A stretch of DNA of 20,986 nucleotides, from NCBI GenBank assembly GCA_002009975.1, contig MTLP01000011.1:1-20986 (forward strand). Direction: 5' to 3'. This document shows positions 1,116 to 17,706 of the stretch, one piece after another; within the stretch, counting starts at the first letter, position 1, and each line of letters starts with the position of its first letter. Origin of the DNA: Thermococcus sp. JdFR-02. GTDB taxonomy: Archaea; Methanobacteriota_B; Thermococci; Thermococcales; Thermococcaceae. The position numbers and the translations under genes are program-made. Under the pieces are notes generated by a model. It saw only the letters and a list, made by a program, of their open reading frames with translations. It did no database searches and had not been told where the DNA came from.

Positions 1116-2354
1116 TCACCAGAAGTCCGTAAGGGTCTTCTTCTGCACACTGCCCCCGTTCTGAGCAGATCGGGCCGAGAGGTTGGGCTGGCTATTCTCG
1201 CAGAGAAGGTTCTTGGAAGTGAAGGAGTATTCTGTGGCAAGTGACTTTACTATCACTTCTTTAGCTTCAGCTGCGTCGTAATGAAACGCGGGGTATACGA
1301 ACCAATCAACTCCTCTCCCACGGCCCTTTCTCCCTTTTCTGACGATATCGACAAATCCCAAGAGCTCTAGCTGCTTCAGGAGGTCTGAAAGTCTACGCTG
1401 TGAGAGTGTCTTCGCTCCTATTTGCTTGGCAACAAAGTTGAACTGGTGGTAGATGTTCGTGGGACTTTCGCCATCCATTTTATCGAGCACGCAGTAGAGT
1501 AAAATTCTCTGGCTTTCGCTTAGTCTTTCAATGCTCTGCCGGATGAACTCCTTCTCTATTTCTCCCTCTGCAATTCTCACATCTCCTTCCGTGACCTTCT
1601 CCGATCCCCTTCTTATGGCCACATCGGCTGCCATCGAGAGGAGGTTCAGAGCATATCTAGCATCTCCGTTCTTCCTTGCAGCCATGGCTGCGCAGAGCGG
1701 AATAACGCTTTCTTCGAGAACGGCCTCATAAAACGCCTGTTCTGCCCTGTGCAAGAGTATATTCTCCAGCTGACTGGCATCGTATGGAGGGAAAAAGATC
1801 TTTCTTGGGATGAATGAGGATGAGACCCTGATGTCTTGGATGAGACTCAAAACAGCAAGATTGTTTGAAATTGCCACTATAGAGGTGTTGGGATGACGAG
1901 AGAGGTGGTATAAAAGCCTTTCACCGTCTTTCACCAGCATTTTGTCAATTTCATCAAGGATCACTATAGTTATGCCTTCATCAATAGCTTTTTTAAGGGA
2001 TTCCCAAGTCTCTACGAATCCAAGCCCTTTTAGAGGCACATCAAAGCCGCTTTCACGAGCCAGCTTTGCAGTAACCTGATACGCTGTTCCATCGGCCACG
2101 GTGTACAGTATCCTAGTATTTTCGGCCACCTCTGATAGCCGTTTTGCGACATACAGCACACAGGTGGTCTTGCCAGAACCTGGCACCCCGACCACAAGCA
2201 GATCAGGAGGTTTGCCCCCATCCAGTACATAACCGAGATAATGCTGCAGATCTTTTATTTCCTTATCTCTGCCCTGTAAAGTGTCTGGAACGTACTGGAG
2301 GTCGAGCACAGACCTGTTCCTGAAAATTCTTGGACGCTCAAATACTCCGTCCAT
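1116..2354 (-). CDS. cdc6: Orc1/Cdc6-family replication initiator (AAA+ plus winged helix), 412 aa
   Basis: N-terminal IFRNRSVLDLQYVPDTLQGRD, Walker A GVPGSGKTT, Walker B IVILDEID, FPPYDASQL, GDARYALNLL, and a C-terminal wHTH (LSDLLKQLELLGFV...GRGRG). Start moved from TTG 2429 to ATG 2354 because of the GGTGG RBS and a TATA box at 2387-2394. Confidence 0.95.
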   Translation of the reverse strand: MDGVFERPRIFRNRSVLDLQYVPDTLQGRDKEIKDLQHYLGYVLDGGKPPDLLVVGVPGSGKTTCVLYVAKRLSEVAENTRILYTVADGTAYQVTAKLARESGFDVPLKGLGFVETWESLKKAIDEGITIVILDEIDKMLVKDGERLLYHLSRHPNTSIVAISNNLAVLSLIQDIRVSSSFIPRKIFFPPYDASQLENILLHRAEQAFYEAVLEESVIPLCAAMAARKNGDARYALNLLSMAADVAIRRGSEKVTEGDVRIAEGEIEKEFIRQSIERLSESQRILLYCVLDKMDGESPTNIYHQFNFVAKQIGAKTLSQRRLSDLLKQLELLGFVDIVRKGRKGRGRGVDWFVYPAFHYDAAEAKEVIVKSLATEYSFTSKNLLCENSQPNLSARSAQNGGSVQKKTLTDFW

Positions 2355-2385
2355 TTGTACCACCCACACCCAGAAGAAAATGGAA

Positions 2386-2396
2386 GTATTTAAAAG
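2386..2396 (-). promoter_or_regulatory. Putative TATA box of the cdc6-mcm operon
   Basis: CTTTTAAATAC on the minus strand, ~32 nt upstream of ATG 2354. Confidence 0.6.
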
Positions 2397-2430
2397 AATC
2401 AATTTCAGCGATGTCTGAGAAGGTAGCAAG

Positions 2431-2923
2431 ATTGCGACTAAATATTTTACAGCTGTATAGCTTCACTCCTAGAGAGGACACACACGAGATTGCGAATAAA
2501 TCAGACACCCCTCTCCTAAATTTTGTTAACCGTATCGGCTCTTTAGGTCTAAGGTTCTGGACATCAGCTCTGGTTACCAAAGTAAAGAGAGAGCAGAGTT
2601 TGCATTGTAACATGAAGAAGGCTGCCTACTGTTAATCACGGTGAAAAAACAAAATAAAAAGTGAAAAATATAAAAAATTAAAAAATATTTTTCTTGCTTT
2701 ACGTGTTAAACACTAATATTTGCCTCTCAAAAACCCTCTATAGAAGCGATTTATTCGCAATTAGGTTAGCATAATTTCTAAAATTGCGAATAATATAAAA
2801 AATTTATGTTGAGAAGATACTTCAGCGACAAAATTTCTTCAGCTGTGTTGATTTATTCGCAATTTCGTGTGTGTCACCCTTCCGGGACTGAAGTTTTATA
2901 GCCGTAAAATATTTAACCGCAAT
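2431..2923. repeat. ~74 bp imperfect inverted repeat (arms 2431-2503 and 2849-2923) and six ATTGCGAATAAAT-like boxes
   Basis: Arm 1 is attgcgactaaatattttacagctgtatagcttcactcctagagaggacacacacgagattgcgaataaatca. The reverse complement of arm 2 is attgcggttaaatattttacggctataaaacttcagtcccggaagggtgacacacacgaaattgcgaataaatca. Boxes lie at 2431(+, degenerate), 2489(+), 2749(-), 2783(+), 2851(-) and 2911(-, degenerate). Confidence 0.95.
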
Positions 2924-2995
2924 TATATCGGGGTTACCAAAATCCTGATACGCAGGTTACCAAAACTCAGGAGTTACGTTTCTGGGGGAAGTGGG

Positions 2996-3016
2996 AGAGA
3001 GGGGGTCCCCCTCTCT
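2996..3016. repeat. Perfect 21 bp interrupted palindrome AGAGAGGGGG-T-CCCCCTCTCT
   Basis: Read directly: 10 bp arms around one central base. Confidence 0.9.
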
Positions 3017-3059
3017 TTAGTTTGATACAATTGTTTCCAAAAGATCCCAAGTTTTAGGT

Positions 3060-3070
3060 CTTTTAAATAC
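3060..3070 (+). promoter_or_regulatory. Putative TATA box of the HTH gene
   Basis: CTTTTAAATAC ~33 nt upstream of ATG 3103, with RBS AGGTGG at 3092-3097. The 11-mer is identical to the cdc6 promoter box. Confidence 0.6.
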
Positions 3071-3102
3071 CTCTTTCTTTTTCCTATTCAAAGGTGGTGT
3101 GA

Positions 3103-4299
3103 ATGAAGAATCTTACTCAAGGAGAGAGAAAATTCCTTAATTTTCTTGTTTCTAAAGCGTCAAATGGGATTTTGGAGGTATCTCTTCGCGAACTCGCCAG
3201 GGAACTCGGTATATCTCATCCTGCAATTTTAAAAAAGGTAAAAATTTTAACAGCCAAAGGCGCAATAAGTTACCAAAAAGGGAGGGGAAAAGTGCCATCA
3301 CGTATAATTGTTAAGGATTCAGGGATTACTAATTTTTCAAATGTAAAAGATCTAGAGGTTACCAAAAGCACAGATGTGAAAGCTCCCAAGGTTACCAATT
3401 TTTCAGAGGTAAAAGTTACCAAAAGTCATAACATGAAGGTTACCAAAACTCAGGAATATACAGAAAGTACTAAAACAGAAGGTTACCAAAAAGAGGATAC
3501 AAGGGTTACCAGAAGGACGGTTACCAAAACTTTAGATGCAAGGGAGAGGTCAAAAGGTGACTCTGGAGAAGCACCACACGACGAAGCGCGTAGTGCGGTA
3601 ATCCGATGGCTCAAAATGGGCGGGCCGCCAGACGCTAGGGAGATAGCCGCAGCTGCGGATCTTCCGGTATCAGCGGTTGAGAGGGCGCTTGCTGAGATCC
3701 AGAGGTTGCCAGAGAGACTGAATCCCTCTGTGGGAATCACTTGCGCTTCTGCTGAGAGGGGTGATGTTTCAGCAGAGCCGGGGCAGACCACGCTAAGCGT
3801 TGCACTAGACCACATAGGTGATGCGGGAAGTATCAAGCCAAGAAAGCACGTGGCAGATGCAGAACCGCCTTCAGAGAAGACATCGCCAGTCTCCCCGATA
3901 CAGGCATCGTTTTCCCAAGCCACCACCAAGGAAGCGCTGGCTTCTTCCCGCGAAGAGACAGCTAAGAGTGAGCCAGCACCGCGTTCTGATGATACCTCCG
4001 GGGAGGCAGGAGTACACTCCGCTTTAGCAACTATGCCCGTACAGCCTCCTCCACCGCCAGCAGTCAGAGTAGAAAATGAGAAGGTACTCGAAAGTTCTCA
4101 CAACAAAGAACGTCTCAAAACACTCACCTACCACCTTAAGAAGCTGACTGAGAGCAATGGTGCAGCGCTCGAGACAGAGTTGCTGCACATCTACACAATG
4201 CAAGGATGGGGGAAGGCTGAACTGAGAGAGGATCTCGCTGCACTGCAGCGACAAGGCAAAGTAGAAAGCGTAGGGAGCAGGAGATGGCAGCTGAAATAA
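3103..4299 (+). CDS. Multi-HTH DNA-binding protein (N-terminal wHTH, internal HTH, C-terminal wHTH, low-complexity linkers); candidate initiator or origin-binding protein
   Basis: N-terminal SLRELARELGISHPAILKKVKILTAKGAI (wHTH), internal DAREIAAAADLPVSAVERALAEI, and C-terminal KERLKTL...ELREDLAALQRQGKVESVGSRRWQLK resembling MCM/RPA C-terminal wHTH domains. Good RBS and TATA box. Confidence 0.8.
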   Translation: MKNLTQGERKFLNFLVSKASNGILEVSLRELARELGISHPAILKKVKILTAKGAISYQKGRGKVPSRIIVKDSGITNFSNVKDLEVTKSTDVKAPKVTNFSEVKVTKSHNMKVTKTQEYTESTKTEGYQKEDTRVTRRTVTKTLDARERSKGDSGEAPHDEARSAVIRWLKMGGPPDAREIAAAADLPVSAVERALAEIQRLPERLNPSVGITCASAERGDVSAEPGQTTLSVALDHIGDAGSIKPRKHVADAEPPSEKTSPVSPIQASFSQATTKEALASSREETAKSEPAPRSDDTSGEAGVHSALATMPVQPPPPPAVRVENEKVLESSHNKERLKTLTYHLKKLTESNGAALETELLHIYTMQGWGKAELREDLAALQRQGKVESVGSRRWQLK

Positions 4300-4694
4300 C
4301 GAAAAAGCCCCTCGTCGCGATGCAAAGAGGTCTGTGACAGGTAGACCACATAGCTCTCTTAGATACACAGAGAGGTGCGCATAGAGAATCGCAACGGTCC
4401 AGCCTACTTATAACCAAAGGGGAAAAATAACAGGGATTAAGGCAGATGCAATCACATCTATGATATGTTAGTTTAGAATTGTCTCTATAATCCTGTCCAC
4501 AATAAATTAACTTAATTTTTGTCTTTAAAGTCAATTTTTGAGCACATTCCTCTCGCAATACCTCTGAATATTAGGCATTTTTATCATTGGCTTGCACCTA
4601 TACCCCCAATTTTGGACTTCTTATTATGTGCAATATTCCGCCTCCTTAACAAGCTCATAGGCTGTCTTTTTGTATCTGGAGGGTGGCATTTGTC

Positions 4695-5135
4695 CTACTC
4701 CGCTCTCCCCATTATAAGCTGAAAGTCCTCCTCAGGAATTTCCCTCATAGCTTTGCCCTGAATGTGCCCAGTCCAGCGACGCTTGTTTTTGATAAAGCTA
4801 AGCTCAGGTATCAGCGACTTGAAGTCAATCGGCTTCAAGAAGATTTTTATCGGGCTGAGCTTTATTCGCAGCGGGTAGGTCTCCTTTCTATCAGGAGGGG
4901 AGTTGAATATCCTACTAGCATTTCTGAACATTTCAGAATCAACCTCGTAGGCAGCCACTACGCTAGGTGGCACGATCTCCTTATCTTTCCTGTGGGACAT
5001 TACGTAGATTAAGCACTTATCGCCTGGCTTCACTCTTGCTATAGTATTCCTGTGCCTCTCAGCCACTCCCCAGATATTTTTCTCTTTTATAACCTTCCAG
5101 TTTTCCTCTGTGGTTATGCAAAGCCAGAGGGTCAT
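4695..5135 (-). CDS. Standalone EVE-domain (PUA-like, archaeal UPF0310/DUF55-type) protein
   Basis: [21 protein letters not shown]...[11 protein letters not shown]...YPLRIKL...[19 protein letters not shown]...[15 protein letters not shown] is the typical archaeal EVE signature. Confidence 0.93.
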
Positions 5136-5145
5136 TAGTAACTGT

Positions 5146-5174
5146 TTTATAATTGGATGTATATTTATTTTTCG
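5146..5174. promoter_or_regulatory. Overlapping divergent promoters for the EVE and rhomboid-like genes (probably leaderless transcripts)
   Basis: Minus strand CGAAAAA-TAAATATA (5174-5160) ends 24 nt before ATG 5135. Plus strand TTTTATAA (~5146-5152) lies ~23 nt before ATG 5175. Confidence 0.5.
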
Positions 5175-5984
5175 ATGAAAATTATATATTCACTTTGGAT
5201 AAAGTTACTTATTCTTCTCTATGGTGTAATCCCTGCTATTTTAATTGCGTTATTTTACTTAGGAAAACCTTACGAAGACTTTTTAATACTTAAAAATACA
5301 GATCCCACAATTCTATCCATTTTATTAAATCATTATTATCATAATTCAGAAAAACATCTAATAAATAATATTCAAGGGTATCTTCTGCTCATAAGTGTTA
5401 ATTTAGCACAGTTAGCAACGTTGCATAGAGATTATAAGTGGTTTAAAGCCTGCTTAATTTTAGTTTTTGTGGTATTTCCGATTATAGGAAGTATAATATA
5501 TGTTTATTTTTCAAATTCAAGCTTTAATACTCTAGGTTTTTCATTTATAAATTCCGAACTCATAGGATTTATTATTGCAGGAACTGCAAAGTTTTATAAT
5601 AAGACGGTAAGTGGTTTTAAAAACCAATTTTTCCTTTTTATATACTTATCACTGTCGCTGCTAATTTACTTTTTTACGTATTTCGAATACATTAAAAAAT
5701 ATCTTTATTTGACAATATTCCCCATATCACTTTTATTTATTTCAATTGTATTTATTAAATCAAACTTCATTGAAATATTTCAGAAACTCATAGAAGGAGA
5801 TAAAAATGCACGAATTAAGTTCTTTATGGCATTCATGTTTCAGCTCTTATTTATAACCCTCTTACCTGCAATTTTTCCTAAAGTGATTGTTTTAAATGGG
5901 CATCAGATAAATATTTATCTTCATTTTGTAGGACTAGTTTTTGGTCTGTATCTGGTATATTTTACCGACATTAAACTCCGATGA
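5175..5984 (+). CDS. Polytopic membrane protein, rhomboid-like intramembrane serine protease family
   Basis: About 7-8 hydrophobic helices. [13 protein letters not shown] matches the rhomboid HxxxxHxxxN loop, LGFSF is GxSG-like with the putative catalytic Ser, and [12 protein letters not shown] contains HxxG with the putative catalytic His. Very AT-rich. Alternative start at 5157. Confidence 0.7.
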
Positions 5985-5996
5985 ATTGAAAATTTA

Positions 5997-8900
5997 TTAT
6001 ACAGATAACGCTAGCTTTAATATTTTAATAACAGAGTATGGATCGTTTCGTATCTGTTTAGAGTCGAATCTTAACACTTTCCATCCCAAGAGCTGTAGAA
6101 GGTTAGTAATTTCTCGATCATTTCTTGCAATCTCCCCCGTATGATACTTAATCCCATCAACATAAATAGCAATTTTTCTATCTCTATAAGCAAAGTCTGC
6201 TCTAGTAAAGGGCTTACTTTCATGATTAAGTATAACAACCTGAGCCTCTGGATCTGGTATTCCATTATCTCTTAGTAAATTGAGAAATCTTGCCTCTAGA
6301 GGTGACTCCACACTTCTCATCGTTATGTCAGCTTTTTTCTTTTCTGCTGTTCTTTCTTCTCTAGATTCTTCCAGTTCTTCTACTTTCTCAACTTCCGAGT
6401 CAAGCAAGGACTCCAAAAACTCTTTTATCACGTACTTGTCCAGAAGCATGTGGTCACGCTGATTGTAATAGTTTCTGAGGCACCTATAGCAGGCGGAATC
6501 GCACTCATGATTGTAGAGGATTTCGTAAGCTTTATCTATTATTTCTCTGAATCTTCGGATCGCTGCTTCCAGATACCCCACACCTCCAGGGATGTCCTCA
6601 TAAAGCACTATCTCTCTACTCATCTGACCATTTTCGACTACGCTTCGAACAAAACCCTTAACTTCATTGTACTCAGTCTCCAGTACAATGGAAATTCCGG
6701 TTAGAAGGGTGTGCAGCAGGGTCTTTGAAAATACTTCCTGATCAGAACCCTCTGGGATATTTGGAGTGATAATCAGCGAATCAGCGCTCTTCCTGGCTAT
6801 TAGGTCCACGCTCACTATATCCTCATCTGTGCCATCGCATCCCTTGTGTAGGTACTCCCAGGTAGCGTCATCCTCTTTCCACAGCCCGCACTTAATACAA
6901 ATATTAAATCTGGATCCGTTTTCACCTGAGTTCGCAACTAGTATGGTGGAATTTCTCCGGTATTTCAGTTCAAGCTTGTCCGCCACTTTATACCTTTTTC
7001 CTTTAATACCTTCTGATACTAGATACTCATTTACCTCGAATCTCCTTGAAGACCTGAACTCTTCAGTGGAGCTTATCCTCTCTACCCTTCTTGCATAATA
7101 TGTTATTGGCTCTAGGAACCTTCTCTTCTCAACTTCTGAACCACACTTGGGGCAATAGTTCTGATACGGGTCAAAGCTCACATAGCTGCAATCAGGATTA
7201 GTGCATCTCACATATCTTGTGTCCTCGCTTGTGGCAAAATCGATTACAGACCTCTTTTCTTGTGTCCCCACCCTGACGGTGAGATGCTTTCTTCTATCCA
7301 CATAAACATAATTTCCTGGGGCAAACTCTCTGACAGCTATCTCGCTGTCCCTAAGAATAGGCTCAACCCTGTCATGGATATTTAGCTCGCTCTGTATTCC
7401 TGGGAAAGCATAACCTGGCAGGAAGCCGTGGTCTCTCAGGTATGAGAGAGTATATGCCAGATACTCGTCTGTTAGCATTTTTGACTGCTTATCAATGAAG
7501 AGTTGCAGATCTTTGCTCTCATTTAAACGCAACCCTTCAGTGTCTCTTTTTTTCAGTAAATACTGAATATTCCTCTCTAAAAAGTTCAGAGCTTCTATCA
7601 ATGGAGCGAGAGTTTCCTCCAGTTCATCGAAGAAGCTGTCTATGACTTTTTTGATGTAGTCAATGCTCAGCCATTCTATCTTACCTCTCTGCACATCCTC
7701 TTTGAAAACCTGGAAAATCTCTTCAGCTATTTTATCCCTCCTCTCCCTCAGCTCCTCCTCCACCTCAGGGATTCTCTTAACTTTCCAAACATCACCTGTT
7801 TTTTCGACCATACCCTCCAAGAAAGCGGGAAGCTTTGAATTAAGCTTTTCAAGTATAAGGGACCTTATATGCCTTCTGATCACCCGCTCATTGTCAAGGT
7901 TGAAAAATGGGGGAATAATACCCCCTGAGATCATTTCCTTAGGTCTATCAAAGAAGTAAGAATCGTGCGGGGCACCTTTGGAATATGAGATTATTAGCGA
8001 TTTACCCTCCCGTCTCCCTGCTCTACCCGCTCTCTGAGCATAGTTTGATGGCTGAGGTGGTATGTTCCTCATAATTGCTGTTACCAGCTCACCGATATCA
8101 ACGCCAAGCTCAAGAGTAGGTGTGCACACCAAAACATTCTTTTTGCCCTCAGTGAACTCCCTCTCGTACTCCTCCCTCTGAAGAAGAGGTATCTGCCCGC
8201 TATGCTCCGCCACTTTAATAGTTATTGGCTCGTGGTTGGTATAGTGGTGGACGTAGAAGTTGCTCTCATCGACACTTGCTCTTTCTAATGTACCACTACA
8301 CCTGTAGGTGGTGCATCTGCCGTTAATATTAACAGAGAGCACCCTTGTGCAGCTTGGGCACTGCCAGAACTCTTTAAGCGGGACAATCTCCATCACATCA
8401 GGATTAACCATAAATCCAGTTGCCACTCTTCTTCCAAGTTGCCTTTCTACTATGTAGCCTTCTTTGCTGAGCAGGTGCACAATGTCCCTGAAGAAGGAGT
8501 GATGGTCGTCTGTAATCTCGAGAAGTCTCTCGGCAATCATCTGGAAAGCGGTCTTTGGACCTCTTGAGTGGGTAATGAAGGCTCCTATTTTAAAGCTACC
8601 GGTCTCAACTGGAGAGAAAGAGAATGCAGAGGTCTTCCAGTGCGGCGGTAGGGCTATCCCCCACTTCTCGAGAGTTCTTTTATCTGGCCTTCGGATAAAG
8701 TAGTCGTATGCTACTGCACGCCTGAAGCGTAGCTCATCTAAGAACACTTTGAGGAATTTAAGAAGTGTATCTTTATCCAGAAGGTACCTGCTGGCAATTC
8801 TCTCGAATTCCGGTGATTCTGCGAGATCGTTTAGCCTTCCATACTCAATAGTCAGTAGCCCCAGCGCTTCGAGGGTAGCTCTTAGCTTTGGTGGTTTGGA

Positions 8901-10982
8901 GAACTCATCGTAGATAAGAAACTCTATTTTCTCTATCTCCTCCCGTTCCAGCATTCTTGTCTTTGGTCTTTCGAATATTCCGAGTTCTACCCCTCGATTC
9001 CACACCTCTTCAGCAGCCCTCCTAATAGACAAGGGAATGTCTCTGTCTTTTGCAACTTCATAAAGGAGCTGCCTGATTGTGAACTTGAGGTGCCTGTCCT
9101 CCATGTAGCCTGCCTGATGGGCTGTGTCCTGCCTGTTATCGGTAAAAATCAGAGTTTTCCTTTCCGGCTGCTCGAGATTAGAGAGCACTGCCGTGGTGAT
9201 TATTGAGACATCTGCAGCATGTCCGCTTTTCAGGGGGGTTACTACTTCTCTGTTCCCATATCTTCCAAAGCAAGCTGGACACTGCAGAATCTTACCCCTC
9301 ACATACAACACATCTTTAAACTCATGGTCGCAGTTAGTGCCTTTAGCATCTTTGCTTAGAGAAAGCAGTCCACACTTCGGGCAGAAGTATGCCCTCTCCA
9401 CCTGTGTCCTTCCTCTTCCGTTGTCGTCCGCATACACCTGTTCAATGTTGTAAGTCAGGTGGACAGTATTTGGAGCAGACTCAAAGCTTGTGTTTGGTAG
9501 CAGATGCCCGGGGAACTCATCTTCATGCATCGTTTTCATGAAGTCTTGACCGCAACTTCTGCAGACTTCCAGGGGGTATGTTACTGAGCCACAGGATGTG
9601 CAGACCGCTTTTCCATCGTTGAAGATCTCCCCGCACTCAGGGTTAGAACACCTCACAAGCCCCTGAATTCCCCTGACAAAGATGTGTACCCTGGGCTTGT
9701 ACCTTGATTTACCGTCTTTTTTGGCGAACATTCCGCACAGGAGGTAAGCCCTCACTTCCCTCTTGATATCTTTTAAAGAGGAGGTACTCCTTTCTTTTAC
9801 CTCATCTTTAATCCTTTGAGCTATCTCTTCAAGAGTCATGGCTTCCTGAAGGAGCCACTTTTCAATGAGATGCGCAAGGTAGTTGTCCTTGAGTATGAAA
9901 TAGGCTTCCTCCTCAGGTGGCACACCCCGCCTTGGTCTTCTATAGGTGAGCTTGTGGATCAGCTTTAGTATCTGGTCTGGCCTATCGGGGTCTGCTTCAA
10001 GGTCGCTCTCGGTCAGTCTTGGTGCAGGAGGCACGTATGGGCTTGCAGGTTCCTCTGGCTCAAAGTAGTCCTCCTCGACAATCGAATCTGAATCAAAAGG
10101 CTCGCCAAAGAGATCCTGAGCGAAATCAATGACTGCCTGCCTCTCACTCTCTGCTTGTGATTTAAGCGTGGCGCTTGTGCCTATGCATATCAGCCTGTCC
10201 TCACCAAACTTGCCGGTGTGCTCCTTCAGCCTCCTTATAAGGCAGGCAATTTCTGAGCCAAGGGCTCCTCTATAGGTGTGTATCTCGTCAAGCACAAGAA
10301 ACTTCAGTAGCTTCTCTTTGAAGATTTTCTGGTCTTCCTTTCTAACTAAGAGGTATTCAAGCATGGAGTAGTTAGTGAGCAGGATATCAGGAGGGTTGTT
10401 TCTAATCTCCTCTCGTGACCACCTTTCTTCAGGTAGGGCGTCGTGAGGTCTCTGGCTCATAGCTTCTTGGGTTCTGGAGGTGTATATAGCAAAGCTTATT
10501 CTAGTTCCTTTTAACAGCCTCTTAAGCCTCTCGTACTGATCGTTGGCGAGGGCGTTCATGGGGTAAATTATCACTGCCTTAGTGCCGAGCTTATCTTTGT
10601 TTTTCATGCAGTACTCAATGATTGGTATCAAGAAGGCTTCTGTCTTACCGCTTCCAGTGCCGGTAGCAACTATTGTATTCTTGCCAGAAAGCACCCTCCT
10701 TATCGCCTTCTCTTGGTGAGAGTAGAGCCTCTCTATGCCATAGCCCTTGAAAATCTCTCCAACTTCAGCGGAGAGCAAACCTTCTTTTACAGCGTCATCA
10801 ATAGGCTTGCCCATAACATAGTTTTTCTCTAGGGAGATGTAGGGACCCGCCCAAAGAAGGCGCTCCTCTTCAATTTTCTGGTCAAGCTTCCCTAAAAGGC
10901 TCGGGTTGGAAACTGGGAAGGTTGTGGTTATGTACATCTTGAATTCTCTTAGTGTATCATCGGCTACCTGAAAGGGCTTCAT
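5997..10982 (-). CDS. Large YprA/Hrq1-like DExH-box helicase with Zn-ribbon inserts, DUF1998 (MrfA-type Zn-binding) and a C-terminal Vsr/DUF559-like nuclease; DISARM-related effector
   Basis: Helicase motifs LYSHQEKAI, TGTGSGKT, YPMNALANDQ, LLTNYSMLEYLL, VLDEIH, TSAT, AEHSGQ, TPTLELGVDIG and QRAGRAGR, plus several CxxC pairs. DUF1998 segment LYEDIPGGVGY...CDSACYRCLRNYYNQ. C-terminal ESPLE...RADFAY...IAIYVDGIKYH...LGWKVLRF. Confidence 0.92.
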   Translation of the reverse strand: MKPFQVADDTLREFKMYITTTFPVSNPSLLGKLDQKIEEERLLWAGPYISLEKNYVMGKPIDDAVKEGLLSAEVGEIFKGYGIERLYSHQEKAIRRVLSGKNTIVATGTGSGKTEAFLIPIIEYCMKNKDKLGTKAVIIYPMNALANDQYERLKRLLKGTRISFAIYTSRTQEAMSQRPHDALPEERWSREEIRNNPPDILLTNYSMLEYLLVRKEDQKIFKEKLLKFLVLDEIHTYRGALGSEIACLIRRLKEHTGKFGEDRLICIGTSATLKSQAESERQAVIDFAQDLFGEPFDSDSIVEEDYFEPEEPASPYVPPAPRLTESDLEADPDRPDQILKLIHKLTYRRPRRGVPPEEEAYFILKDNYLAHLIEKWLLQEAMTLEEIAQRIKDEVKERSTSSLKDIKREVRAYLLCGMFAKKDGKSRYKPRVHIFVRGIQGLVRCSNPECGEIFNDGKAVCTSCGSVTYPLEVCRSCGQDFMKTMHEDEFPGHLLPNTSFESAPNTVHLTYNIEQVYADDNGRGRTQVERAYFCPKCGLLSLSKDAKGTNCDHEFKDVLYVRGKILQCPACFGRYGNREVVTPLKSGHAADVSIITTAVLSNLEQPERKTLIFTDNRQDTAHQAGYMEDRHLKFTIRQLLYEVAKDRDIPLSIRRAAEEVWNRGVELGIFERPKTRMLEREEIEKIEFLIYDEFSKPPKLRATLEALGLLTIEYGRLNDLAESPEFERIASRYLLDKDTLLKFLKVFLDELRFRRAVAYDYFIRRPDKRTLEKWGIALPPHWKTSAFSFSPVETGSFKIGAFITHSRGPKTAFQMIAERLLEITDDHHSFFRDIVHLLSKEGYIVERQLGRRVATGFMVNPDVMEIVPLKEFWQCPSCTRVLSVNINGRCTTYRCSGTLERASVDESNFYVHHYTNHEPITIKVAEHSGQIPLLQREEYEREFTEGKKNVLVCTPTLELGVDIGELVTAIMRNIPPQPSNYAQRAGRAGRREGKSLIISYSKGAPHDSYFFDRPKEMISGGIIPPFFNLDNERVIRRHIRSLILEKLNSKLPAFLEGMVEKTGDVWKVKRIPEVEEELRERRDKIAEEIFQVFKEDVQRGKIEWLSIDYIKKVIDSFFDELEETLAPLIEALNFLERNIQYLLKKRDTEGLRLNESKDLQLFIDKQSKMLTDEYLAYTLSYLRDHGFLPGYAFPGIQSELNIHDRVEPILRDSEIAVREFAPGNYVYVDRRKHLTVRVGTQEKRSVIDFATSEDTRYVRCTNPDCSYVSFDPYQNYCPKCGSEVEKRRFLEPITYYARRVERISSTEEFRSSRRFEVNEYLVSEGIKGKRYKVADKLELKYRRNSTILVANSGENGSRFNICIKCGLWKEDDATWEYLHKGCDGTDEDIVSVDLIARKSADSLIITPNIPEGSDQEVFSKTLLHTLLTGISIVLETEYNEVKGFVRSVVENGQMSREIVLYEDIPGGVGYLEAAIRRFREIIDKAYEILYNHECDSACYRCLRNYYNQRDHMLLDKYVIKEFLESLLDSEVEKVEELEESREERTAEKKKADITMRSVESPLEARFLNLLRDNGIPDPEAQVVILNHESKPFTRADFAYRDRKIAIYVDGIKYHTGEIARNDREITNLLQLLGWKVLRFDSKQIRNDPYSVIKILKLALSV

Positions 10983-11094
10983 AAGCTTCCCCTCTTTTTA
11001 TTGTGTTGACTTTAGTTTTTAAAAAAGTTACTGCTTGGTTAATAAAAAATGGATAAGTTATCCAAGTCAGTTGAAGCAAGTTGTTTCTGCTCTC

Positions 11095-12072
11095 TCATGA
11101 GTACAATTCAGCTTCTCGCTTCCATTCGATTACTATTTCATAAAATCTTCTTTTTAGTTCTCCAGAACGTTCTATTTTCAAAAAAGCTTTGGCATACGAT
11201 TTAAATACTTTTTTAAATTCATATTTTAATGTGATACTTAACTGTGAAATATCAGAGCCTATTGATAATTCAATCCACTTTAGCAAAAAAATAAAAATTT
11301 GGTAGTACTGTTCTATAAACTCAGACATTTCATATTCAGTACCATCGAGAACTACAATCTTTTTTGATCCAGAATCATAAAAAATATTTGAATGAGATAT
11401 TTTATTTCTCAAAAGTTTAGGTTTGCCACTTCCACTACCAAAAATTGAATCGTTTTCTTGTGGAATGCCAATTATGCCATGTAGTACTTTATTTATCGTT
11501 CCTGCTGTAGCATGGTCTTTTCCCTTTCTTTTTATTTTTAAAAAATATTTCACAGATCCATTATTATCATGTTTTTTATTTGATTTTAAATATCTATATA
11601 ACTTCCTATCGACAATGTGCAAAATCAATTCATAAGTATTTACAAAAATCCACAAAAGAGTTGACATAAGAATACTTTCTGGCAATATTTTCTTATTTTT
11701 TTCTATATCATTCAGGACTTCTGTTATAAAATAAAGTGGTCCAGCAATTTCTAAGAAATCTTCGGCAGGTACTCTCGATATCGACACTAAAAATTTTAGT
11801 ATTTTTTCGTCATCAGGTGAAATCGAATATTTTTGACTACTAATGTTATGTTCAATATTTTTCAACATTTCAATAAGATTTTCAATGTTTTTCATGTCTA
11901 AATATTCATCTACCTTTTCGGCACTTTTTTCCAGAAATTTACTAAATATTATAGGGTTACCTGTAGATAATGCTTTATTAAGCTCTACTATATATTGTTG
12001 TTGAAAAATTTTGGTGGGAAGCTTTATATAACCTTTCTTTAAGAGGTATTCTACTAATTTAGCCTCGCTCAT
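11095..12072 (-). CDS. AT-rich hypothetical protein with a HEPN-type RNxxxH motif (putative RNase effector)
   Basis: Helical 325 aa ORF. LLRNKISHSN (motif at 11392-11409) is preceded by an NTYELILH helix that could supply the conserved HEPN glutamate. Confidence 0.65.
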   Translation of the reverse strand: MSEAKLVEYLLKKGYIKLPTKIFQQQYIVELNKALSTGNPIIFSKFLEKSAEKVDEYLDMKNIENLIEMLKNIEHNISSQKYSISPDDEKILKFLVSISRVPAEDFLEIAGPLYFITEVLNDIEKNKKILPESILMSTLLWIFVNTYELILHIVDRKLYRYLKSNKKHDNNGSVKYFLKIKRKGKDHATAGTINKVLHGIIGIPQENDSIFGSGSGKPKLLRNKISHSNIFYDSGSKKIVVLDGTEYEMSEFIEQYYQIFIFLLKWIELSIGSDISQLSITLKYEFKKVFKSYAKAFLKIERSGELKRRFYEIVIEWKREAELYS

Positions 12073-12233
12073 AGTATATCAGCTCCTTAGCTTTCCCCAA
12101 GGTTGTATTAAATAGAAATTTTCTCAACTCTCTCAATTTTAATTATTTCATAAGGTACATTAATAAATTGCTGAAGGGTGGATTCTCAATTAGCAAAAAC
12201 TTTATAGCCATTTCCAACATGAAATTTATCAAT

Positions 12234-12551
12234 ATGCCTGGCTTTGAACATGGATTTAATAGGGCTATAAGCGAAATAGTAGGTGGAATGGTTACAATGA
12301 TCATTGTTATTAATATTGCCCAAAATATAAACCCATCATTGGTTATGATGTTTAAAATAGTTGGATTTCTTAGTTTAATCGGTTTAATAATGGCAATGCC
12401 ATATTGGGGAACTTTTTACATGTTAGGATGGATTTATGCCATTGTAATCTTGTATCAAGCAGGTCTTGTTAATCTTTTAGAACTCTTCATATACGTCGGA
12501 TTTCCATCGTTTGTTTTGTTTAAAAGGATAACACGTAGTTTTGATTTTTAA
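12234..12551 (+). CDS. Small membrane protein (~105 aa, 3-4 TM helices)
   Basis: Almost wholly hydrophobic ORF. ATG 12234 is preferred because AAAAACTTTATA lies ~28 nt upstream; alternative starts are 12219 and 12168. Confidence 0.75.
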   Translation: MPGFEHGFNRAISEIVGGMVTMIIVINIAQNINPSLVMMFKIVGFLSLIGLIMAMPYWGTFYMLGWIYAIVILYQAGLVNLLELFIYVGFPSFVLFKRITRSFDF

Positions 12552-12565
12552 ATATAGTTTTTGAC

Positions 12566-12580
12566 AGAAAAATAAAAAAA
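12566..12580 (-). terminator. Putative oligo-T terminator after the 12582 stop
   Basis: The minus strand reads TTTTTTTATTTTT just after the stop, between convergent genes. Confidence 0.45.
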
Positions 12581-12581
12581 G

Positions 12582-13478
12582 TTAAATATTTTCTAAAAAT
12601 CTCCTAATAGCATAATAAACTATAGCATGGGTTGTCATAAGTGCGAGATTTGCATCTCCTCTATCAATACTTTTCCCAGTATGTGCCCCAGGTGCTATAA
12701 ATCGCCATGTACCCTTAAAAATTTTCTCAAAGTGTTTTCCTATATCTTTATCACCAAAAAATTTCTTCCAATCTGGCACAGGACGTTCATTTCCTTTTTC
12801 ATCTTTTTCTATCTTTTCAAATCCTTTATTTACAATTGCTTTTTTTACTTCTTCTAAAGCTCTTCTGCACTCAACAAGGGTATTTTTGTACTCACCTATT
12901 GAGAACTGTTTCCACGCATTGTTGAGGTGAGATACAGCATCCTTCAGCTCTTCTGGAGACTCAAGCTCCGGAACTTCCAATAGCCAGACCTTCTTATACT
13001 TTAGTTCTCTGAGGATTCTCTCCGTCCAGTCGCTTTTTGGGACTCTGCAGTTTAATTTGGGATTGGGAGGCATCCCAGCTAGAGATAAACTGTCTTGATA
13101 CTTATGCATCACAACCCCCTGCAGTTCTAGCTGGAAGTTTACGTCATCCCCATTCCTCAGCTTTTCAATCTGTTCTAATTCATAGTGATTCAGATCAAGA
13201 TTCAGCTGAATATGTACTTCACCAGTTGAGGGAATTTGAATAAATTGCCTATCAGAATACGCCCTACCTGCATAACCAGATGTTCTATTACCTATTACAT
13301 TGACTTTGGCATGGACACCCAAAAAGTACAATTCGCCAGAGGGGATATGTATGGGATTAAGGCTGATATCAAAAGATATCTGTGGAGAGAATGACATTGA
13401 ATTTGCATCAACACCTTCTACTCTCACTCCCCACCTAAAGGTCTGCTGTCCTATGTAAACCTCCATAGTTTCAGCCAT
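12582..13478 (-). CDS. Hypothetical protein with a beta-rich N-terminal domain and a C-terminal HEPN/Abi-like helical domain
   Basis: C-terminal AVSHLNNAW...EYKNTLVECRRALEEV...WRFIAPGAHTG...DRGDANLAL fits a HEPN/DUF4145-like pattern (Rx6H at 12681-12704). Start ATG 13478 has a GGGGTG RBS. Confidence 0.6.
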   Translation of the reverse strand: MAETMEVYIGQQTFRWGVRVEGVDANSMSFSPQISFDISLNPIHIPSGELYFLGVHAKVNVIGNRTSGYAGRAYSDRQFIQIPSTGEVHIQLNLDLNHYELEQIEKLRNGDDVNFQLELQGVVMHKYQDSLSLAGMPPNPKLNCRVPKSDWTERILRELKYKKVWLLEVPELESPEELKDAVSHLNNAWKQFSIGEYKNTLVECRRALEEVKKAIVNKGFEKIEKDEKGNERPVPDWKKFFGDKDIGKHFEKIFKGTWRFIAPGAHTGKSIDRGDANLALMTTHAIVYYAIRRFLENI

Positions 13479-13557
13479 TTGCAACACCCCTATCTATGCT
13501 GATATTCGCTACCAGGCATATTTAACAATTGTTGAGTGACTTGATACAAATACACTA

Positions 13558-16500
13558 CTAAAACTCCCCCAACCTCTTAGTCCTTATAATCTTCCCATCC
13601 CTAGTAAACTGCACCTGCTCCACAAACTTCTTTAGAGGTCTTAGGGGTTTTTCTGTTCCCTTCTTATACTTGCTCAAGTCAAAGCTCTCAGGCGATTTCT
13701 TCTTTTCCTCGGCGATTATTTTTCCAAGCCTCTCGTACTCCTCCAAGCAAAGCCTCTTCGTCCTGAACTCGCCAAAAGCTTCTGTTTCTTTACGCCTGAG
13801 CACTGGGAAGGTGTCCAGGATGTAGGCGAACTCCACTCTTGTCAGCCCGTAGAGGTGTGCCACTAAAGCATCTATCTCAGCCCTGAGCTGTGCTCTTTTT
13901 GCTCCGTCTCTCTTCTCGTTGTTTATGTAAACCCAGTCCGCCACGCCATACTCAGGGGACCACTTCTCGCTCAACCTCTCCCAACCTTCAACTCTACTCG
14001 TTTTTCCGAGGGTGTTCCAGTAGGGCTGGTAGGTCTCCTCCCATAGCTCAGCAAATTCTTCATCCACACATATCAGGCGTGCTGCTCTCGGCACAATCTG
14101 GTCAAAGTACCAGTTGCCAGAGGTGAGGCGGGGGATTGGAAGCTGGTAGAGGTAGAACATGGTCAAATTTGTAGTAACTTTCTGTCTAATTACATAATCT
14201 ACAATGTATGAATTAAAAATACTATTAAAGAAAAAGTGTTCAAATAAATCTTGAGCATTTATAGTAATGCTATTTAGAGAATGTCCACAGCCCGGTGATT
14301 TAAACGAAAATACAGGAAGAACACAAGAAACAAGGGTTCTTTCGTTTGTGTTGGATGCTATTGCTCTATATATTGATCGTGGAAATACAGGTACTCCTTT
14401 GTCAGCTAATCTGTTCAAAATAACTTCCTCACTAATCCAATACTGCGGCTTCTCATAAAACGCATCAAACTGCCAAATCATCTTGCCTTCATAAAGTGGC
14501 AGATAAACCTCCTTCTTTCCATTTCTCTCCACCAGCCACCTCAGCCCTTTCTCGTCTAAGGGCTTGGTTCCCATCTCCTTGAGCTTATCCAGAGTTACAA
14601 AGAGGTGAGAGTCGTTGGTCATGTGAAACTCTGTTGTGAACTTCACATTCCAGGGATAGTTCTCGTCACTCTCACCAAGCAGAGGCCAGTCATCATAAAT
14701 CTTCTCCGCGAGGTCTATGTCCTCCTGCCTCTTGAACTCCATAATTGAGAGAGTGTCAGGCGAGAATCTCTCAATGAGTTTCCTGGATATCCTCAGACCA
14801 TTCTCAGCAACCATAGGCAAAAGCCTGTCAAGCTCCTCAGCCTTCGGTGCAAAGCTACCCTGGAGCACCTCCCAGGGGTCAAGCTCCTCATCTCTAAGCT
14901 CTTCTGGTCTCGATCCGATGAAGAACCCTGCCCTGAAGCTGTAGTCTTCTTCCTGTTTCTCCTTCAGAGCCGAGAATAGAGTATATTTAAACCTGATATC
15001 TATTGAGGGGAATATCTTCATTCTGTTCTCTATTCCAATCAAATAAGATATTCTGGAGTTCTCAAGGAACATCCTCCTTAGCTCTGCGCACCCCTTATCT
15101 GTGTAAAGCCCTGAGGGAACAATAATTGACATCCTTCCCCGTTCTCTGATAAGCCAGAAGAACCTCTCAAGAAAGAGCTTGTACAGGTTTATATCTCCCT
15201 GGTATTGGTGAGGGTAATAACCAGAGTTTCTGAAATAATAGGATTGTCTCTCAATTTTGTCCTTATATTCCCTCCAGCTTTTCTTTATTGCAGGATTTGC
15301 CTCCATCAACTCTCTCATTACTCTTAACTTTTTCTGCTTGGTGTAGTCTCTAAAGTAAGGGTCGTAGTTGCTGAAGAACTCATCGCTGTTGGGCTTTACA
15401 ATGTCCCAGGGCGGATTACCAACGACAGCATCAAACCCTCCCTCGGCGAAGACCTCTGGGAACTCCAGCTCCCAGTGGAAGAACTTGTACTCCTGAGCGA
15501 GCCTCTCCGCCTCCTCAATCATGGCATCAAAGCTCTCATTGCCCTTTCCATCTTCCAGAATGTACCTGAGAATCTCAATGTACTCGTCGGTGGTGGGGAT
15601 CTTCTTGTCCGTAAACCAGAAGGAGCACCACAGGTCGTAAGCCCTTTTCAGCTTCAGGTAAAGCTTGCCTTCTTCAATCTCGCCCTTAACGAGCTGGGAG
15701 TAAAGCTCCTCCTTGAACTTGACAATGGACAGCGCCTCATCAGCCATATTGAGCTTCTGTCTCAGCTCAATTACATCCCTCATGTAGCTCAGCGGGTTTT
15801 CAAGCATTTTCCCTTCTGCTGTAAAGAAATACTTAACCTCCCTGCTTGCCTCCCTCACCCTCTTGTTGTGCCTTCTAAGCTCCCTGTCGCTGAAGAGCTC
15901 ATCAGGGACGAACTTCACCCTCTCGTGGTCAGCACCTATCAGGCTGTTGCCGCATTTAAGTTTGTGATCGAGAAAAGTCAGAGGCTTGCCCTTCGCCATT
16001 GTTGTGAGCCACAGCGAAACCTTGGCAAGCTCCACTGCAAGGGGGTTCAAATCAACGCCGTATATGCAGTTCTCCACCACAAGCCTCTTGAATTCCGCCT
16101 CCTTTTCGCTGTCTATATCCTCCTCGGCAATCAGGCCCTCTCTGAGCAGAGCCTCTTTGTACTTCTCAGCAAGAAAGTTGACAGCAGCCACTAGGAAGGC
16201 ACCGCTTCCCATGGCAGGGTCAAGGACCTTAATCTCCAGTATATCCTCTGAGCTCTTGCCATCGACCAAAGGCTCAAGAGCAGACCTCATCAGGAACTCA
16301 GTTATCTGCCTGGGAGTATAGTAGGTGCCTGTGCTCTTCCTCCTGCCGCCCCAGTAGCCCAGGTAGAACCTCCCTTCGGGGATCTCTTCAATTATTCTCT
16401 CCCCTCTCAGCCTGCTCTTGGGTACAGTCTGAAACTCCCCCTTTATCTTCACAACTACCAAGTCTTCCTCCGCAATCTTCGGCTCAAGCTCCAGCAGTCC

Positions 16501-17706
16501 TTCGTAAATAGAGCCGAGCTGCTCAATGCCAAGCTCCCTGTAGGATATAACCTCCCTTGTTCTTCCACGCCCTCCTGCGGTCAAGGTGAGGTCCCTGATT
16601 ACCTCGGCCATAACACTGTCGCTCACCCTGCACCTGTTGAGCAGTGGAGTTGAAGACTCTGAGAAGAGCTTTCCATTATAGGCAGGCACGTGAAGCTCGC
16701 TACTCTCAAAGCCTTCGTTAATAAGCTTAAAAGTAGCCTTAAGCGACTCCCACAGGAAGTAGCTGTTAGGATGGAAGCTGTTTCTTGGGTCTGCCACAAG
16801 ATCTCTCAAAAACTCAAGACTGTAGAAATTTCTGTACAGCGGGTTCCCAACGGGAAGCAGCTCAGTGCTCTCAGCATAGAGCAGAAAGAGAATTCTGTAA
16901 AGATAGACAAGAGACTCCTGATAGAGCTTCTCAAGGTCGAAGCCCTCGCTCTCAACAACATCCTTGTTGCTCTCATCCTCCAGGACCCCTCTTATGAACC
17001 TCTCCAAGGCTCTAAAGGCGCTCTCCCTGAGCTCGTCTCCCACTCTGATCGCATGCTTTCTGCTCTCCTCTTCCAGCACCTCGATAAGGCTCTTACCGCT
17101 CTCATCAGGCACAAAAGCCTCCTTTCTGAAAATAGCCCAGAACACCCTGAAAGAGTCCCTGTCCTCAAGCTCAAAGGTGCGCCACAGGTCAACCTCAAGG
17201 TAGGACCTATCCGAACTCAGGGGACTGTTTCTTATGAGCCTGATCACTTTCCCATTCGTAAGTATTCCATAGGGTGCCTTGGCGTAATAAAGTGCTCTCA
17301 CGAGCTCTTTGTGGGGCGATCTTGCGAGTCCTTCAGCTGCATCCAAGCTCTCTCCAAACCTTAAAAATCTGAAGATTACAAGCGGCTTGTTGTTATATTT
17401 CTCAATAGCTGAGATTTTAATTTCACCCTTCTCTGTCTCTATGCTGTTTCTCCACAGTGGCGAGAAGCCCAGCTTTTGAAAGATGTGCTTAAGCCAAATA
17501 TTCCACATCTCACTGAGCGAAGTCTTATCGCCAAGTGTTCCTCCATACCTGTCGAATCTGTACAGCAGCCACCTGTAAGCTTCGTTTACTGTGCTTTCAC
17601 CAAGCTTTCCCTTCAGTGACCTTTCGTTTAAAATATTGCCCAAAAAGTAGTCTGAGAAGAATCCTCCAGCGTTTATTACGTTGGAGTAAACGGCAGGTTT
17701 TCTCAA
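13558..17706 (-). CDS. Eco57I/type IIG-like N6-adenine DNA methyltransferase (DrmMI-like), 1382 aa
   Basis: RRKSTGTYYTP, motif I VLDPAMGSGAFL, IYGVDLNPLAVELAKVSLWL, motif IV GFDAVVGNPPW, and a C-terminal TRD region (YRAIASNTNERT). The TTG start overlaps the upstream TGA stop (TTGA), implying translational coupling. Confidence 0.93.
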   Translation of the reverse strand: MRKPAVYSNVINAGGFFSDYFLGNILNERSLKGKLGESTVNEAYRWLLYRFDRYGGTLGDKTSLSEMWNIWLKHIFQKLGFSPLWRNSIETEKGEIKISAIEKYNNKPLVIFRFLRFGESLDAAEGLARSPHKELVRALYYAKAPYGILTNGKVIRLIRNSPLSSDRSYLEVDLWRTFELEDRDSFRVFWAIFRKEAFVPDESGKSLIEVLEEESRKHAIRVGDELRESAFRALERFIRGVLEDESNKDVVESEGFDLEKLYQESLVYLYRILFLLYAESTELLPVGNPLYRNFYSLEFLRDLVADPRNSFHPNSYFLWESLKATFKLINEGFESSELHVPAYNGKLFSESSTPLLNRCRVSDSVMAEVIRDLTLTAGGRGRTREVISYRELGIEQLGSIYEGLLELEPKIAEEDLVVVKIKGEFQTVPKSRLRGERIIEEIPEGRFYLGYWGGRRKSTGTYYTPRQITEFLMRSALEPLVDGKSSEDILEIKVLDPAMGSGAFLVAAVNFLAEKYKEALLREGLIAEEDIDSEKEAEFKRLVVENCIYGVDLNPLAVELAKVSLWLTTMAKGKPLTFLDHKLKCGNSLIGADHERVKFVPDELFSDRELRRHNKRVREASREVKYFFTAEGKMLENPLSYMRDVIELRQKLNMADEALSIVKFKEELYSQLVKGEIEEGKLYLKLKRAYDLWCSFWFTDKKIPTTDEYIEILRYILEDGKGNESFDAMIEEAERLAQEYKFFHWELEFPEVFAEGGFDAVVGNPPWDIVKPNSDEFFSNYDPYFRDYTKQKKLRVMRELMEANPAIKKSWREYKDKIERQSYYFRNSGYYPHQYQGDINLYKLFLERFFWLIRERGRMSIIVPSGLYTDKGCAELRRMFLENSRISYLIGIENRMKIFPSIDIRFKYTLFSALKEKQEEDYSFRAGFFIGSRPEELRDEELDPWEVLQGSFAPKAEELDRLLPMVAENGLRISRKLIERFSPDTLSIMEFKRQEDIDLAEKIYDDWPLLGESDENYPWNVKFTTEFHMTNDSHLFVTLDKLKEMGTKPLDEKGLRWLVERNGKKEVYLPLYEGKMIWQFDAFYEKPQYWISEEVILNRLADKGVPVFPRSIYRAIASNTNERTLVSCVLPVFSFKSPGCGHSLNSITINAQDLFEHFFFNSIFNSYIVDYVIRQKVTTNLTMFYLYQLPIPRLTSGNWYFDQIVPRAARLICVDEEFAELWEETYQPYWNTLGKTSRVEGWERLSEKWSPEYGVADWVYINNEKRDGAKRAQLRAEIDALVAHLYGLTRVEFAYILDTFPVLRRKETEAFGEFRTKRLCLEEYERLGKIIAEEKKKSPESFDLSKYKKGTEKPLRPLKKFVEQVQFTRDGKIIRTKRLGEF

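Follow-up and report, generated by a model that had tools for sequence, protein, structure and literature searches.

Why would a short DNA word that is repeated beside a putative replication origin continue, on the same strand, into the coding sequence of the next gene? The question is raised by contig MTLP01000011.1 of Thermococcus sp. JdFR-02. The window analysed here (20,986 nucleotides) is the entire contig, which is cut at its end within an MCM gene, and the element that it carries is incomplete. It holds the replication module of an archaeal mobile element: MCM, Orc1/Cdc6, an AT-rich origin flanked by origin recognition box (ORB) repeats, and the gene of a winged helix-turn-helix (wHTH) protein, P0001. 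From the origin into the P0001 gene run 11 co-oriented boxes of the GGTTACCAAAA type, each of 11 letters, between 2572 and 3529 (Table 1). We conclude that this is a real, conserved array of candidate binding sites, and that it stands out by its archaeal Orc1 and MCM setting and by a word shared with phages. On balance we lean towards reading the boxes as iterons that would be recognised by the first domain of P0001. They would act on the neighbouring Orc1/Cdc6 origin or at it, and self-repression would be a by-product.

The array is as described in the original prediction, with three intergenic and eight intragenic copies. The core GTTACCA occurs 12 times in the window, 11 times on the + strand between 2573 and 3526, where shuffled sequences lead one to expect 1.10 copies (sd 1.01, largest 4; 0 of 100 shuffles reached 12). 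With up to two mismatches allowed, GGTTACCAAAA has 16 matches vs 5.8 expected, a number that was again reached by 0 of 100 shuffles. The exact 11-mer is present seven times in the whole genome of 2,362,347 bases, and six of these copies lie at 2932-3529 of this contig. Inside the gene the boxes are read in two frames, six as VT[K/N/R] and two as [S/G]YQK, and a 19-mer, AGGTTACCAAAACTCAGGA, is common to an intergenic position (2954-2972) and an in-gene one (3437-3455); both features had been noted before. Several boxes are indeed spaced 23-24 bp apart: in the series 23, 33, 24, 24, 43, 23 and 15 this spacing recurs four times, but there is no strict phasing.

Is it the peptide or the DNA that has been conserved? 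The gene order MCM, Cdc6, ORB origin, wHTH gene recurs in a related metagenome locus, L001, which encodes a wHTH protein 55% identical to P0001. L001 contains 14 boxes, all on the strand of the gene, six before it and eight inside it (GTTACCA: 13 found vs 0.8 expected). In a profile of the 25 boxes from both loci (11 from the window and 14 from L001), information is sharply confined to 11 bases and the flanks are at background. Where the two proteins have identical residues, the same codon is used in 24/25 cases within boxes vs 135/194 outside them (Fisher p = 0.0036), and the fraction in the folded N-terminal domain is 19/41. In the alignment of the linkers, box-to-box bases are identical at 54/57 positions and non-box bases at 67/106. 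All of the linker VT dipeptides of the two genes (11/11) are encoded by GTT ACC and all of the YQ dipeptides (5/5) by TAC CAA, when codon usage predicts GTT ACC for a VT with a frequency of ~0.09 and 0.07 in the two loci, respectively; the sole VT that the two genes have outside the linker is GTC ACA.

The reading frame of the boxes also changes between homologues. Six boxes of the window pair in register with boxes of L001, one pair lies 4 nt apart and is read as VTN in one locus and GYQN in the other, and one box is private to each locus. P0004, a homologue known as protein only, has GYQK where P0001 and P0003 read VTKS, and contains five VT-type and six YQ-type motifs. As the box codons are the same across homologues while the box itself appears in different frames, the constraint almost certainly acts on the DNA rather than on the peptide, as proposed from the window alone. 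One observation named at the outset as fatal to that proposal was a VTK peptide kept with divergent codons; the uniform GTT ACC and TAC CAA codons are the opposite pattern.

These comparisons already contradict the idea that the boxes do nothing as DNA and are a peptide repeat or what remains of a tandem duplication, an idea to which we give hardly any credence. The linker did grow partly by duplication, as three 33-nt units at 3309-3415 (repeat family D1) are 66-73% alike. Duplication of such a unit explains how boxes multiply, but not why only 11 bases persist while the flanks have decayed to no information, and it has no place for boxes in two frames, for intergenic copies, or for box codons that are identical across a 55%-identical homologue. 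Box 4 is a partial case: its codons specify a beta strand within the folded DNA-binding domain, and a constraint on the protein may explain part of its conservation. In metagenome runs X1 and X2, contigs of the window form (over window positions 2300-4400) and of an L001-like form are found at similar contig depth, so that each of these samples contains two related elements that share the boxes. The window form showed 0 differences in the pieces recovered from runs X1, X2 and X3, and no new allele was seen.

What, then, do the boxes adjoin? The intergenic region of ~700 bases lies between the minus-strand MCM and Orc1/Cdc6 genes and the wHTH gene. In it, a 27-nt inverted repeat (I2) at 2477-2503 pairs with 2849-2875 (96% complementary), four shorter copies of its core are present, and the repeats face each other across an AT-rich stretch; the lowest GC of the region (0.27) is that of the interval 2600-2799. 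An ORB 21-mer of this region is also found in L001, at 5156-5176 and 5682-5702. Archaeal ORB origins that lie next to their initiator gene typically look like this, with inverted repeats on either side of an AT-rich stretch and an orc1/cdc6 gene adjoining, and the label of origin given in the original prediction is supported; the region would probably act as one. The general design of Orc1/Cdc6-ORB origins (PMC4010727) is the same as that seen in the window. However, the window adds a second, co-oriented array of 11-bp boxes that runs into the neighbouring gene, and among the literature listings and abstracts searched, no ORB origin was described with such an array.

In both loci some of the boxes lie within the ORB-bounded origin (2572 in the window, 5532-5586 in L001). 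This position bears on whether the boxes could serve autoregulation only, as operators or roadblocks that set the level of the protein and have no part in replication. The boxes do flank and fill the 5' third of the gene, and wHTH proteins of the LexA and MarR types are mostly repressors. However, no box overlaps the TATA-like element of the P0001 gene (the nearest boxes in the window are ~100 nt upstream), boxes are also present inside the origin in both loci, and a relative of P0001, P0005, fuses a homologous DNA-binding domain to a fragment with a weak, below cut-off match to Prim-Pol (PF09250, E = 0.03). We regard pure autoregulation as very unlikely.

Several side observations concern the same region. 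A 33-base block by the AT-rich core (window 2704-2736, L001 5298-5330) is inverted between the two elements, being 93.9% identical on opposite strands, unlike the outer ORB repeats and all boxes, which keep their orientation. The window and L001 also differ in the side of the AT-rich stretch on which their within-origin boxes are found. A 25-nt inverted repeat (I3, 2373-2397 / 3059-3083, 80% complementary) includes a TTTAAA-type element and precedes both cdc6 and the wHTH gene, as if the divergent genes had a common promoter design; its cdc6-side copy (2373-2397) matches the upstream region of the L001 wHTH gene.

Which protein would read the boxes? The AlphaFold2 model of P0001, built from an alignment of 3 sequences only (mean predicted local distance difference test score 57.6), contains three small, confident domains, namely a wHTH (residues 1-72), a three-helix HTH (156-202) and a winged helix (330-398). 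Between them lie low-confidence linkers (73-155 and 203-329), and the seven linker boxes, at codons 85-143, all fall within the first of these modelled segments. The protein is rare, with three clusters in 5.8 billion sequences; 1.84 billion representatives gave 6 matches, of which 4 are real (P0007 and P0008 were rejected as spurious repeat proteins). No relatives were found in genome contigs, in viral contigs, or by tblastn in plasmids or phages, and 0/60 relatives of the host carry one. VT[K]/YQ peptides directly follow the N-terminal wHTH in 4/4 proteins that have this domain (P0001, P0003, P0004 and P0005) and are found in 0/1 without it (P0006). P0005, known as protein only from a contig of at most 3.3 kb, has an N-terminal wHTH followed by VNK/VTK peptides and a zinc-finger-like region, and no relatives of its N-terminal part were found. 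P0006 has the second and third domains only and no box peptides. P0005 thus has the first domain together with the peptides and P0006 has neither, and we take it that the boxes travel with the first domain. Locus L085, retrieved with P0006, was set aside as an unrelated phage locus with no array.

This co-occurrence, together with a phage parallel described below, suggests that the first domain of P0001 is the reader of the boxes. The sites might instead be real but read by another domain of the module, namely the N-terminal HTH of MCM, the winged helix of Cdc6 or the middle HTH of P0001. Indeed, the L001 MCM has MarR-type HTH domains (1.8e-10), of which the window MCM keeps a weak remnant, and a preprint on Thermococcales viruses proposes that MCM extensions of this kind recognise origins (PMC12934983). 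However, the box peptides accompany the P0001-type N-terminal domain, present in all four proteins with it and absent from the one without. Between the window and L001 the boxes have stayed the same although the length of the MCM extension has changed by ~228 residues, and Cdc6 is suited by the separate set of inverted ORB-like repeats. Recognition of the boxes by a domain other than the first one of P0001 is in our view decidedly unlikely.

The parallel with phages came from a scan of public contigs for pairs of the 11-mer separated by 4-34 bases, which returned 54 genomic and 28 viral loci (82). At many of these loci the word belongs to a 19-base dyad, GGTTACC-AAAAC-GGTAAC(C), which recurs 3-7 times within a gene. 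The copies lie on the coding strand, come immediately after an N-terminal wHTH and yield the peptide VTKTVT or GYQNGN. The open reading frame (ORF) with the match belongs to Phage_rep_O in six of the viral loci and to HTH_36 in ten (16/28); two more align with the HTH_36 group with no Pfam match, and ten show no initiator. Two genomic loci are Phage_rep_O, two fall in the untyped group, and the rest (~50) are chance pairs. Such chance pairs (10/28 viral, ~50/54 genomic), located in TonB receptors, IF-2, an integrase, other genes or no ORF at all, were discarded. With two control words matched in composition, 9 and 20 viral loci were obtained, and 0/16 of the ORFs tested matched Phage_rep_O or HTH_36; these control scans used flanks of 600 bases vs 2000 for the real scan, a difference that counts against the comparison. 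Over 93% of its length, one of the phage proteins shares 37-39% identity with lambdoid O proteins, and the record of phage 434 annotates four gpO-binding sites inside gene O with the form TCCCTC-AAAAC-GAGGGA (arm-AAAAC-arm).

The archaeal box is the first arm plus the A-tract of this class of phage-initiator iterons, whose orientation and position in the gene it shares. The analogy with lambda O that had been drawn from the window is therefore closer than claimed, since the same 11-mer lies within the iteron of many Phage_rep_O genes. The GGTTACC-AAAAC-GGTAAC(C) class itself occurs in the linkers of initiators from at least two Pfam families, Phage_rep_O and HTH_36 (loci L056-L083, L038, L047, L008 and L010), and spans many phage contigs and some bacterial genomes. 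A string search of the literature found no description of this class, and one for the box or its peptides returned unrelated primer matches only.

Iterons inside the O initiator gene are the classical, textbook arrangement of phages lambda and 434. In these phages, as in the archaeal gene, an N-terminal wHTH is followed by a linker whose DNA holds iterons in several frames, with an A-tract (AAAAC). Seven of the archaeal boxes likewise lie just after the DNA-binding domain, which ends near residue 72, and in the Phage_rep_O subgroup with a GGTTACC-AAAAC-GGTAACC iteron the first 11 bases are the archaeal box. The two systems also differ. The archaeal array extends into the intergenic origin, its partner genes are Orc1/Cdc6 and MCM rather than P and DnaB, and residues 150-398 of P0001 showed no similarity to O in any search run. 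Common descent of the archaeal and phage modules is possible. That box and reader form one module across domains of life, an O-type organiser passed between bacterial phages and an archaeal element, is a tentative idea that we hold to be doubtful. If true, P and DnaB would be replaced in the archaeon by an Orc1/Cdc6 loader and an MCM helicase as the partners of this organiser, and the origin would be a hybrid: a helicase of eukaryote type would be placed at a site chosen by an iteron binder of phage type.

Several points weigh against the iteron reading or against its link to O. By Pfam, the N-terminal domain (residues 1-76) is a generic wHTH, with LexA_DNA_bind as its best match (3.9e-6) and HTH_36 at E = 0.018, and Phage_rep_O (PF04492) was absent from the matches of this segment in both loci, even with an E cut-off of 10. 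The fold search is equally generic: MarR, CodY and RbkR-type proteins rank equal to or better than the N-terminal domains of plasmid RepA, all with E > 0.02. In favour of the link, hhalign aligns the archaeal N-terminal domain with that of Phage_rep_O at P = 80.8% (E = 1.3e-5, 66 columns, 17% identity), which is suggestive only, since unrelated wHTH domains can give this level; Phage_rep_O vs the HTH_36 group is similar (P = 79%), and the archaeal domain vs the HTH_36 group gives nothing (P = 0.4%). Unlike the phage dyads of arm, AAAAC and inverted arm, the archaeal boxes are single arms, with almost no information after AAAA (at most 0.5 bit per position), and the AT-rich stretch lies outside the P0001 gene. 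The module contains other DNA-binding domains, in the winged helix of Cdc6, the N-terminal HTH of MCM and the second HTH of P0001. Finally, both loci with DNA carry the same box, and the three close homologues combine this box with an invariant recognition helix, which leaves no variation in which covariation of the two could be sought.

The number of sites raises one further alternative, in which the array would be a maintenance or centromere-like site rather than an initiation element. There, copies of the element would be brought together by the wHTH protein to be segregated or tethered. Models for such a site are parC/ParR, tubC/TubR and the EBNA1 family of repeats beside oriP. Eleven and 14 co-oriented direct repeats over ~1 kb are more than an operator needs, the array stands beside the AT-rich core and does not replace it, and on this account the boxes would be bound by a wHTH protein, as tubC is by TubR. 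However, the spacing is irregular (15 to 43), and the same word in phages sits in initiator genes. A plasmid centromere is also expected to have the gene of a partner nucleoside triphosphatase by that of its site-binding protein, and no ParA, TubZ or actin-like enzyme of this kind was found among the scanned ORFs of the window and L001, an absence that counts for little because the contig is incomplete. We consider a maintenance site unlikely.

Returning to the iteron reading, the mechanism that we propose starts from boxes that would be protein-binding sites kept by selection on the DNA and would form the iteron array of the replication module. The N-terminal winged helix of P0001 would bind each 11-bp box, probably with one domain per box, head to tail, and the protein would coat ~1 kb, starting within the ORB-bounded origin and ending where its own gene encodes the linker. 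This nucleoprotein complex would adjoin the ORB repeats bound by Orc1/Cdc6 and the AT-rich stretch, and the two further HTH or winged-helix domains may help or gate the loading of the element's MCM. Such a role would resemble that of lambda O at ori-lambda or of WhiP at Sulfolobus oriC3, the two systems to which this one comes nearest. Occupied boxes in and before the gene would also throttle its transcription. That P0001 binds the boxes, and what this binding does, we infer from the sequence and by analogy; the function at the origin is suggested by the boxes inside the ORB-bounded region in both loci and by the comparison with known initiators.

Other initiators provide partial precedents. 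In RepA_N plasmids, the origin lies inside the rep gene. The iterons to which RepA_N initiators bind are semi-palindromic, converging on a poly-A tract (PMC7145576), and in pSK41 and pTZ2162 it is the N-terminal domain that binds, as predicted for P0001. However, there is no sequence match, and the fold match to RepA N-terminal domains (4pql, 4pt7 and 5kbj) is weak (E 0.05-0.12, rmsd, root-mean-square deviation, 4.7-4.8) and worse than that to MarR-type regulators. Among iteron plasmid Rep proteins in general (RepA/RepE/pi, RepA_N), no Rep family was found for P0001 in Pfam.

In archaea, the tandem winged-helix, Cdt1-like initiator WhiP is reported to be required for Sulfolobus oriC3; chromatin immunoprecipitation recovers it mostly inside its own ORF, where it footprints on AT-rich repeats (Samson et al. 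2013, PMC3607249). Compared by description rather than by sequence, WhiP and P0001 are both archaeal winged-helix proteins whose genes lie beside an origin, a putative one in the case of P0001. P0001 has three modelled HTH or winged-helix domains, its gene abuts the ORB and AT-rich region, and its in-ORF sites are conserved DNA. In contrast, WhiP is crenarchaeal and Cdt1-like, and at oriC3 it acts independently of Orc1/Cdc6; the module of the window includes both an Orc1/Cdc6 gene and ORB-like repeats. No CDT1 family was matched by P0001 in Pfam (E up to 0.01) or in a sequence search of the PDB. A related setting is that of MCM-encoding Thermococcales viruses and integrated elements, for which a 2026 preprint reports MCMs with HTH extensions, and no Orc1/Cdc6 and no classical ORB in its viral genomes (PMC12934983). 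The window resembles them in that its mobile element, too, encodes an MCM extended at the N-terminus by an HTH, but differs by its Orc1/Cdc6, its ORB repeats and a separate wHTH protein with boxes.

The GC of the contig, 0.437, differs from that of most of the genome (~0.375), which marks it as foreign DNA. The window Orc1/Cdc6 is 86.6% identical to the L001 copy, and from its translation the true start is probably the ATG near 2354. The window MCM is 84.7% identical to residues 300-599 of the L001 MCM and has a short N-terminal extension with a weak HTH, of which residues 19-47 resemble the MarR-type HTH of the L001 protein (15/29 identical). The L001 MCM (L001 536-3784) has ~228 extra N-terminal residues relative to the window MCM and two HTH domains (MarR_2 1.8e-10), and the window MCM retains a weak remnant of the second alone. 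BLASTP of P0001 against the MCM N-termini was not significant (E 1.7 and 52); the match of its second HTH (166-201) with MCM residues 14-49 (31% over 36 residues, E = 52, not significant) is a lead only. A cluster of defence genes occupies 5997-20627, and in L001 a DruA fragment adjoins the MCM gene. No tRNA genes were found, and Rfam gave nothing real (an astro_FSE match of 20 bits vs a threshold of 70). A sigma-70 promoter scan was set aside, as the host is an archaeon.

Table 1. Coordinates of the features of the window discussed in the text.
Feature	Position	Strand	Basis or remark
MCM helicase gene, 5' part, truncated by contig end	3..1115	-	Pfam MCM_N + MCM_OB
Orc1/Cdc6 initiator gene	1116..2429	-	Pfam Cdc6_lid 1.6e-23, Cdc6_C 2.6e-10, AAA domains
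Left ORB-like repeats (span 2428..2502)	2428-2444 and 2486-2502	+	17-mer scan
Box 1 (GGTTACCAAAG)	2572..2582	+	within ORB-bounded origin region
AT-rich stretch, candidate unwinding element	2640..2700		sequence reading
Right ORB-like repeats (span 2748..2924)	2748-2764, 2781-2793, 2850-2866, 2910-2924	-, +, -, -	repeat families D9, I2, I7, I8, I10; 17-mer scan
Box 2 (exact)	2932..2942	+	intergenic
Box 3 (exact)	2955..2965	+	intergenic; extended 21-mer CAGGTTACCAAAACTCAGGAG identical at L001 5530-5550
Putative TATA-like element TTTTAAATA	3061..3069	+	~35 nt before start codon; within inverted repeat I3; by eye
P0001 gene, 398-aa protein	3103..4299	+	Pfam LexA_DNA_bind 7.1e-07 at residues 1-61; AlphaFold2 model
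Box 4 (AGTTACCAAAA)	3268..3278	+	frame SYQK; strand of the wing of the DNA-binding domain
Box 5 (exact)	3357..3367	+	frame VTK
Box 6 (GGTTACCAATT)	3390..3400	+	frame VTN; nearest L001 box (6259) 4 nt off, reads GYQN
Box 7 (AGTTACCAAAA)	3414..3424	+	frame VTK
Box 8 (exact)	3438..3448	+	frame VTK
Box 9 (exact)	3481..3491	+	frame GYQK
Box 10 (GGTTACCAGAA)	3504..3514	+	frame VTR; no L001 counterpart
Box 11 (exact)	3519..3529	+	frame VTK
EVE-domain protein gene	4695-5135		6e-22; between wHTH gene and defence cluster
DruE-like helicase, 1661 aa	5997-10982		MZB + DUF559 domains
ORF without any family	11095-12072		within defence cluster
ORF without any family	12582-13487		within defence cluster
DrmMI-like/type IIG methylase	13558-17706		
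DrmD-like SNF2 helicase	17703-20627		

From a biological perspective, to our knowledge an archaeal origin within the gene of its own initiator has been reported once, for WhiP. The arrangement described here is on a mobile element of a Thermococcales-like host, beside an Orc1/Cdc6, MCM and ORB module, and would be a compact case in which an accessory sequence-specific binder, as predicted for P0001, and an Orc1-type initiator meet at one origin. The two near-identical arrays of the window and L001 offer ready-made sites for binding tests. Finally, the box is identical to part of a widespread phage O-type iteron, and either modules for origin recognition have been exchanged between domains of life, or archaeal and phage initiators have converged on the same word.

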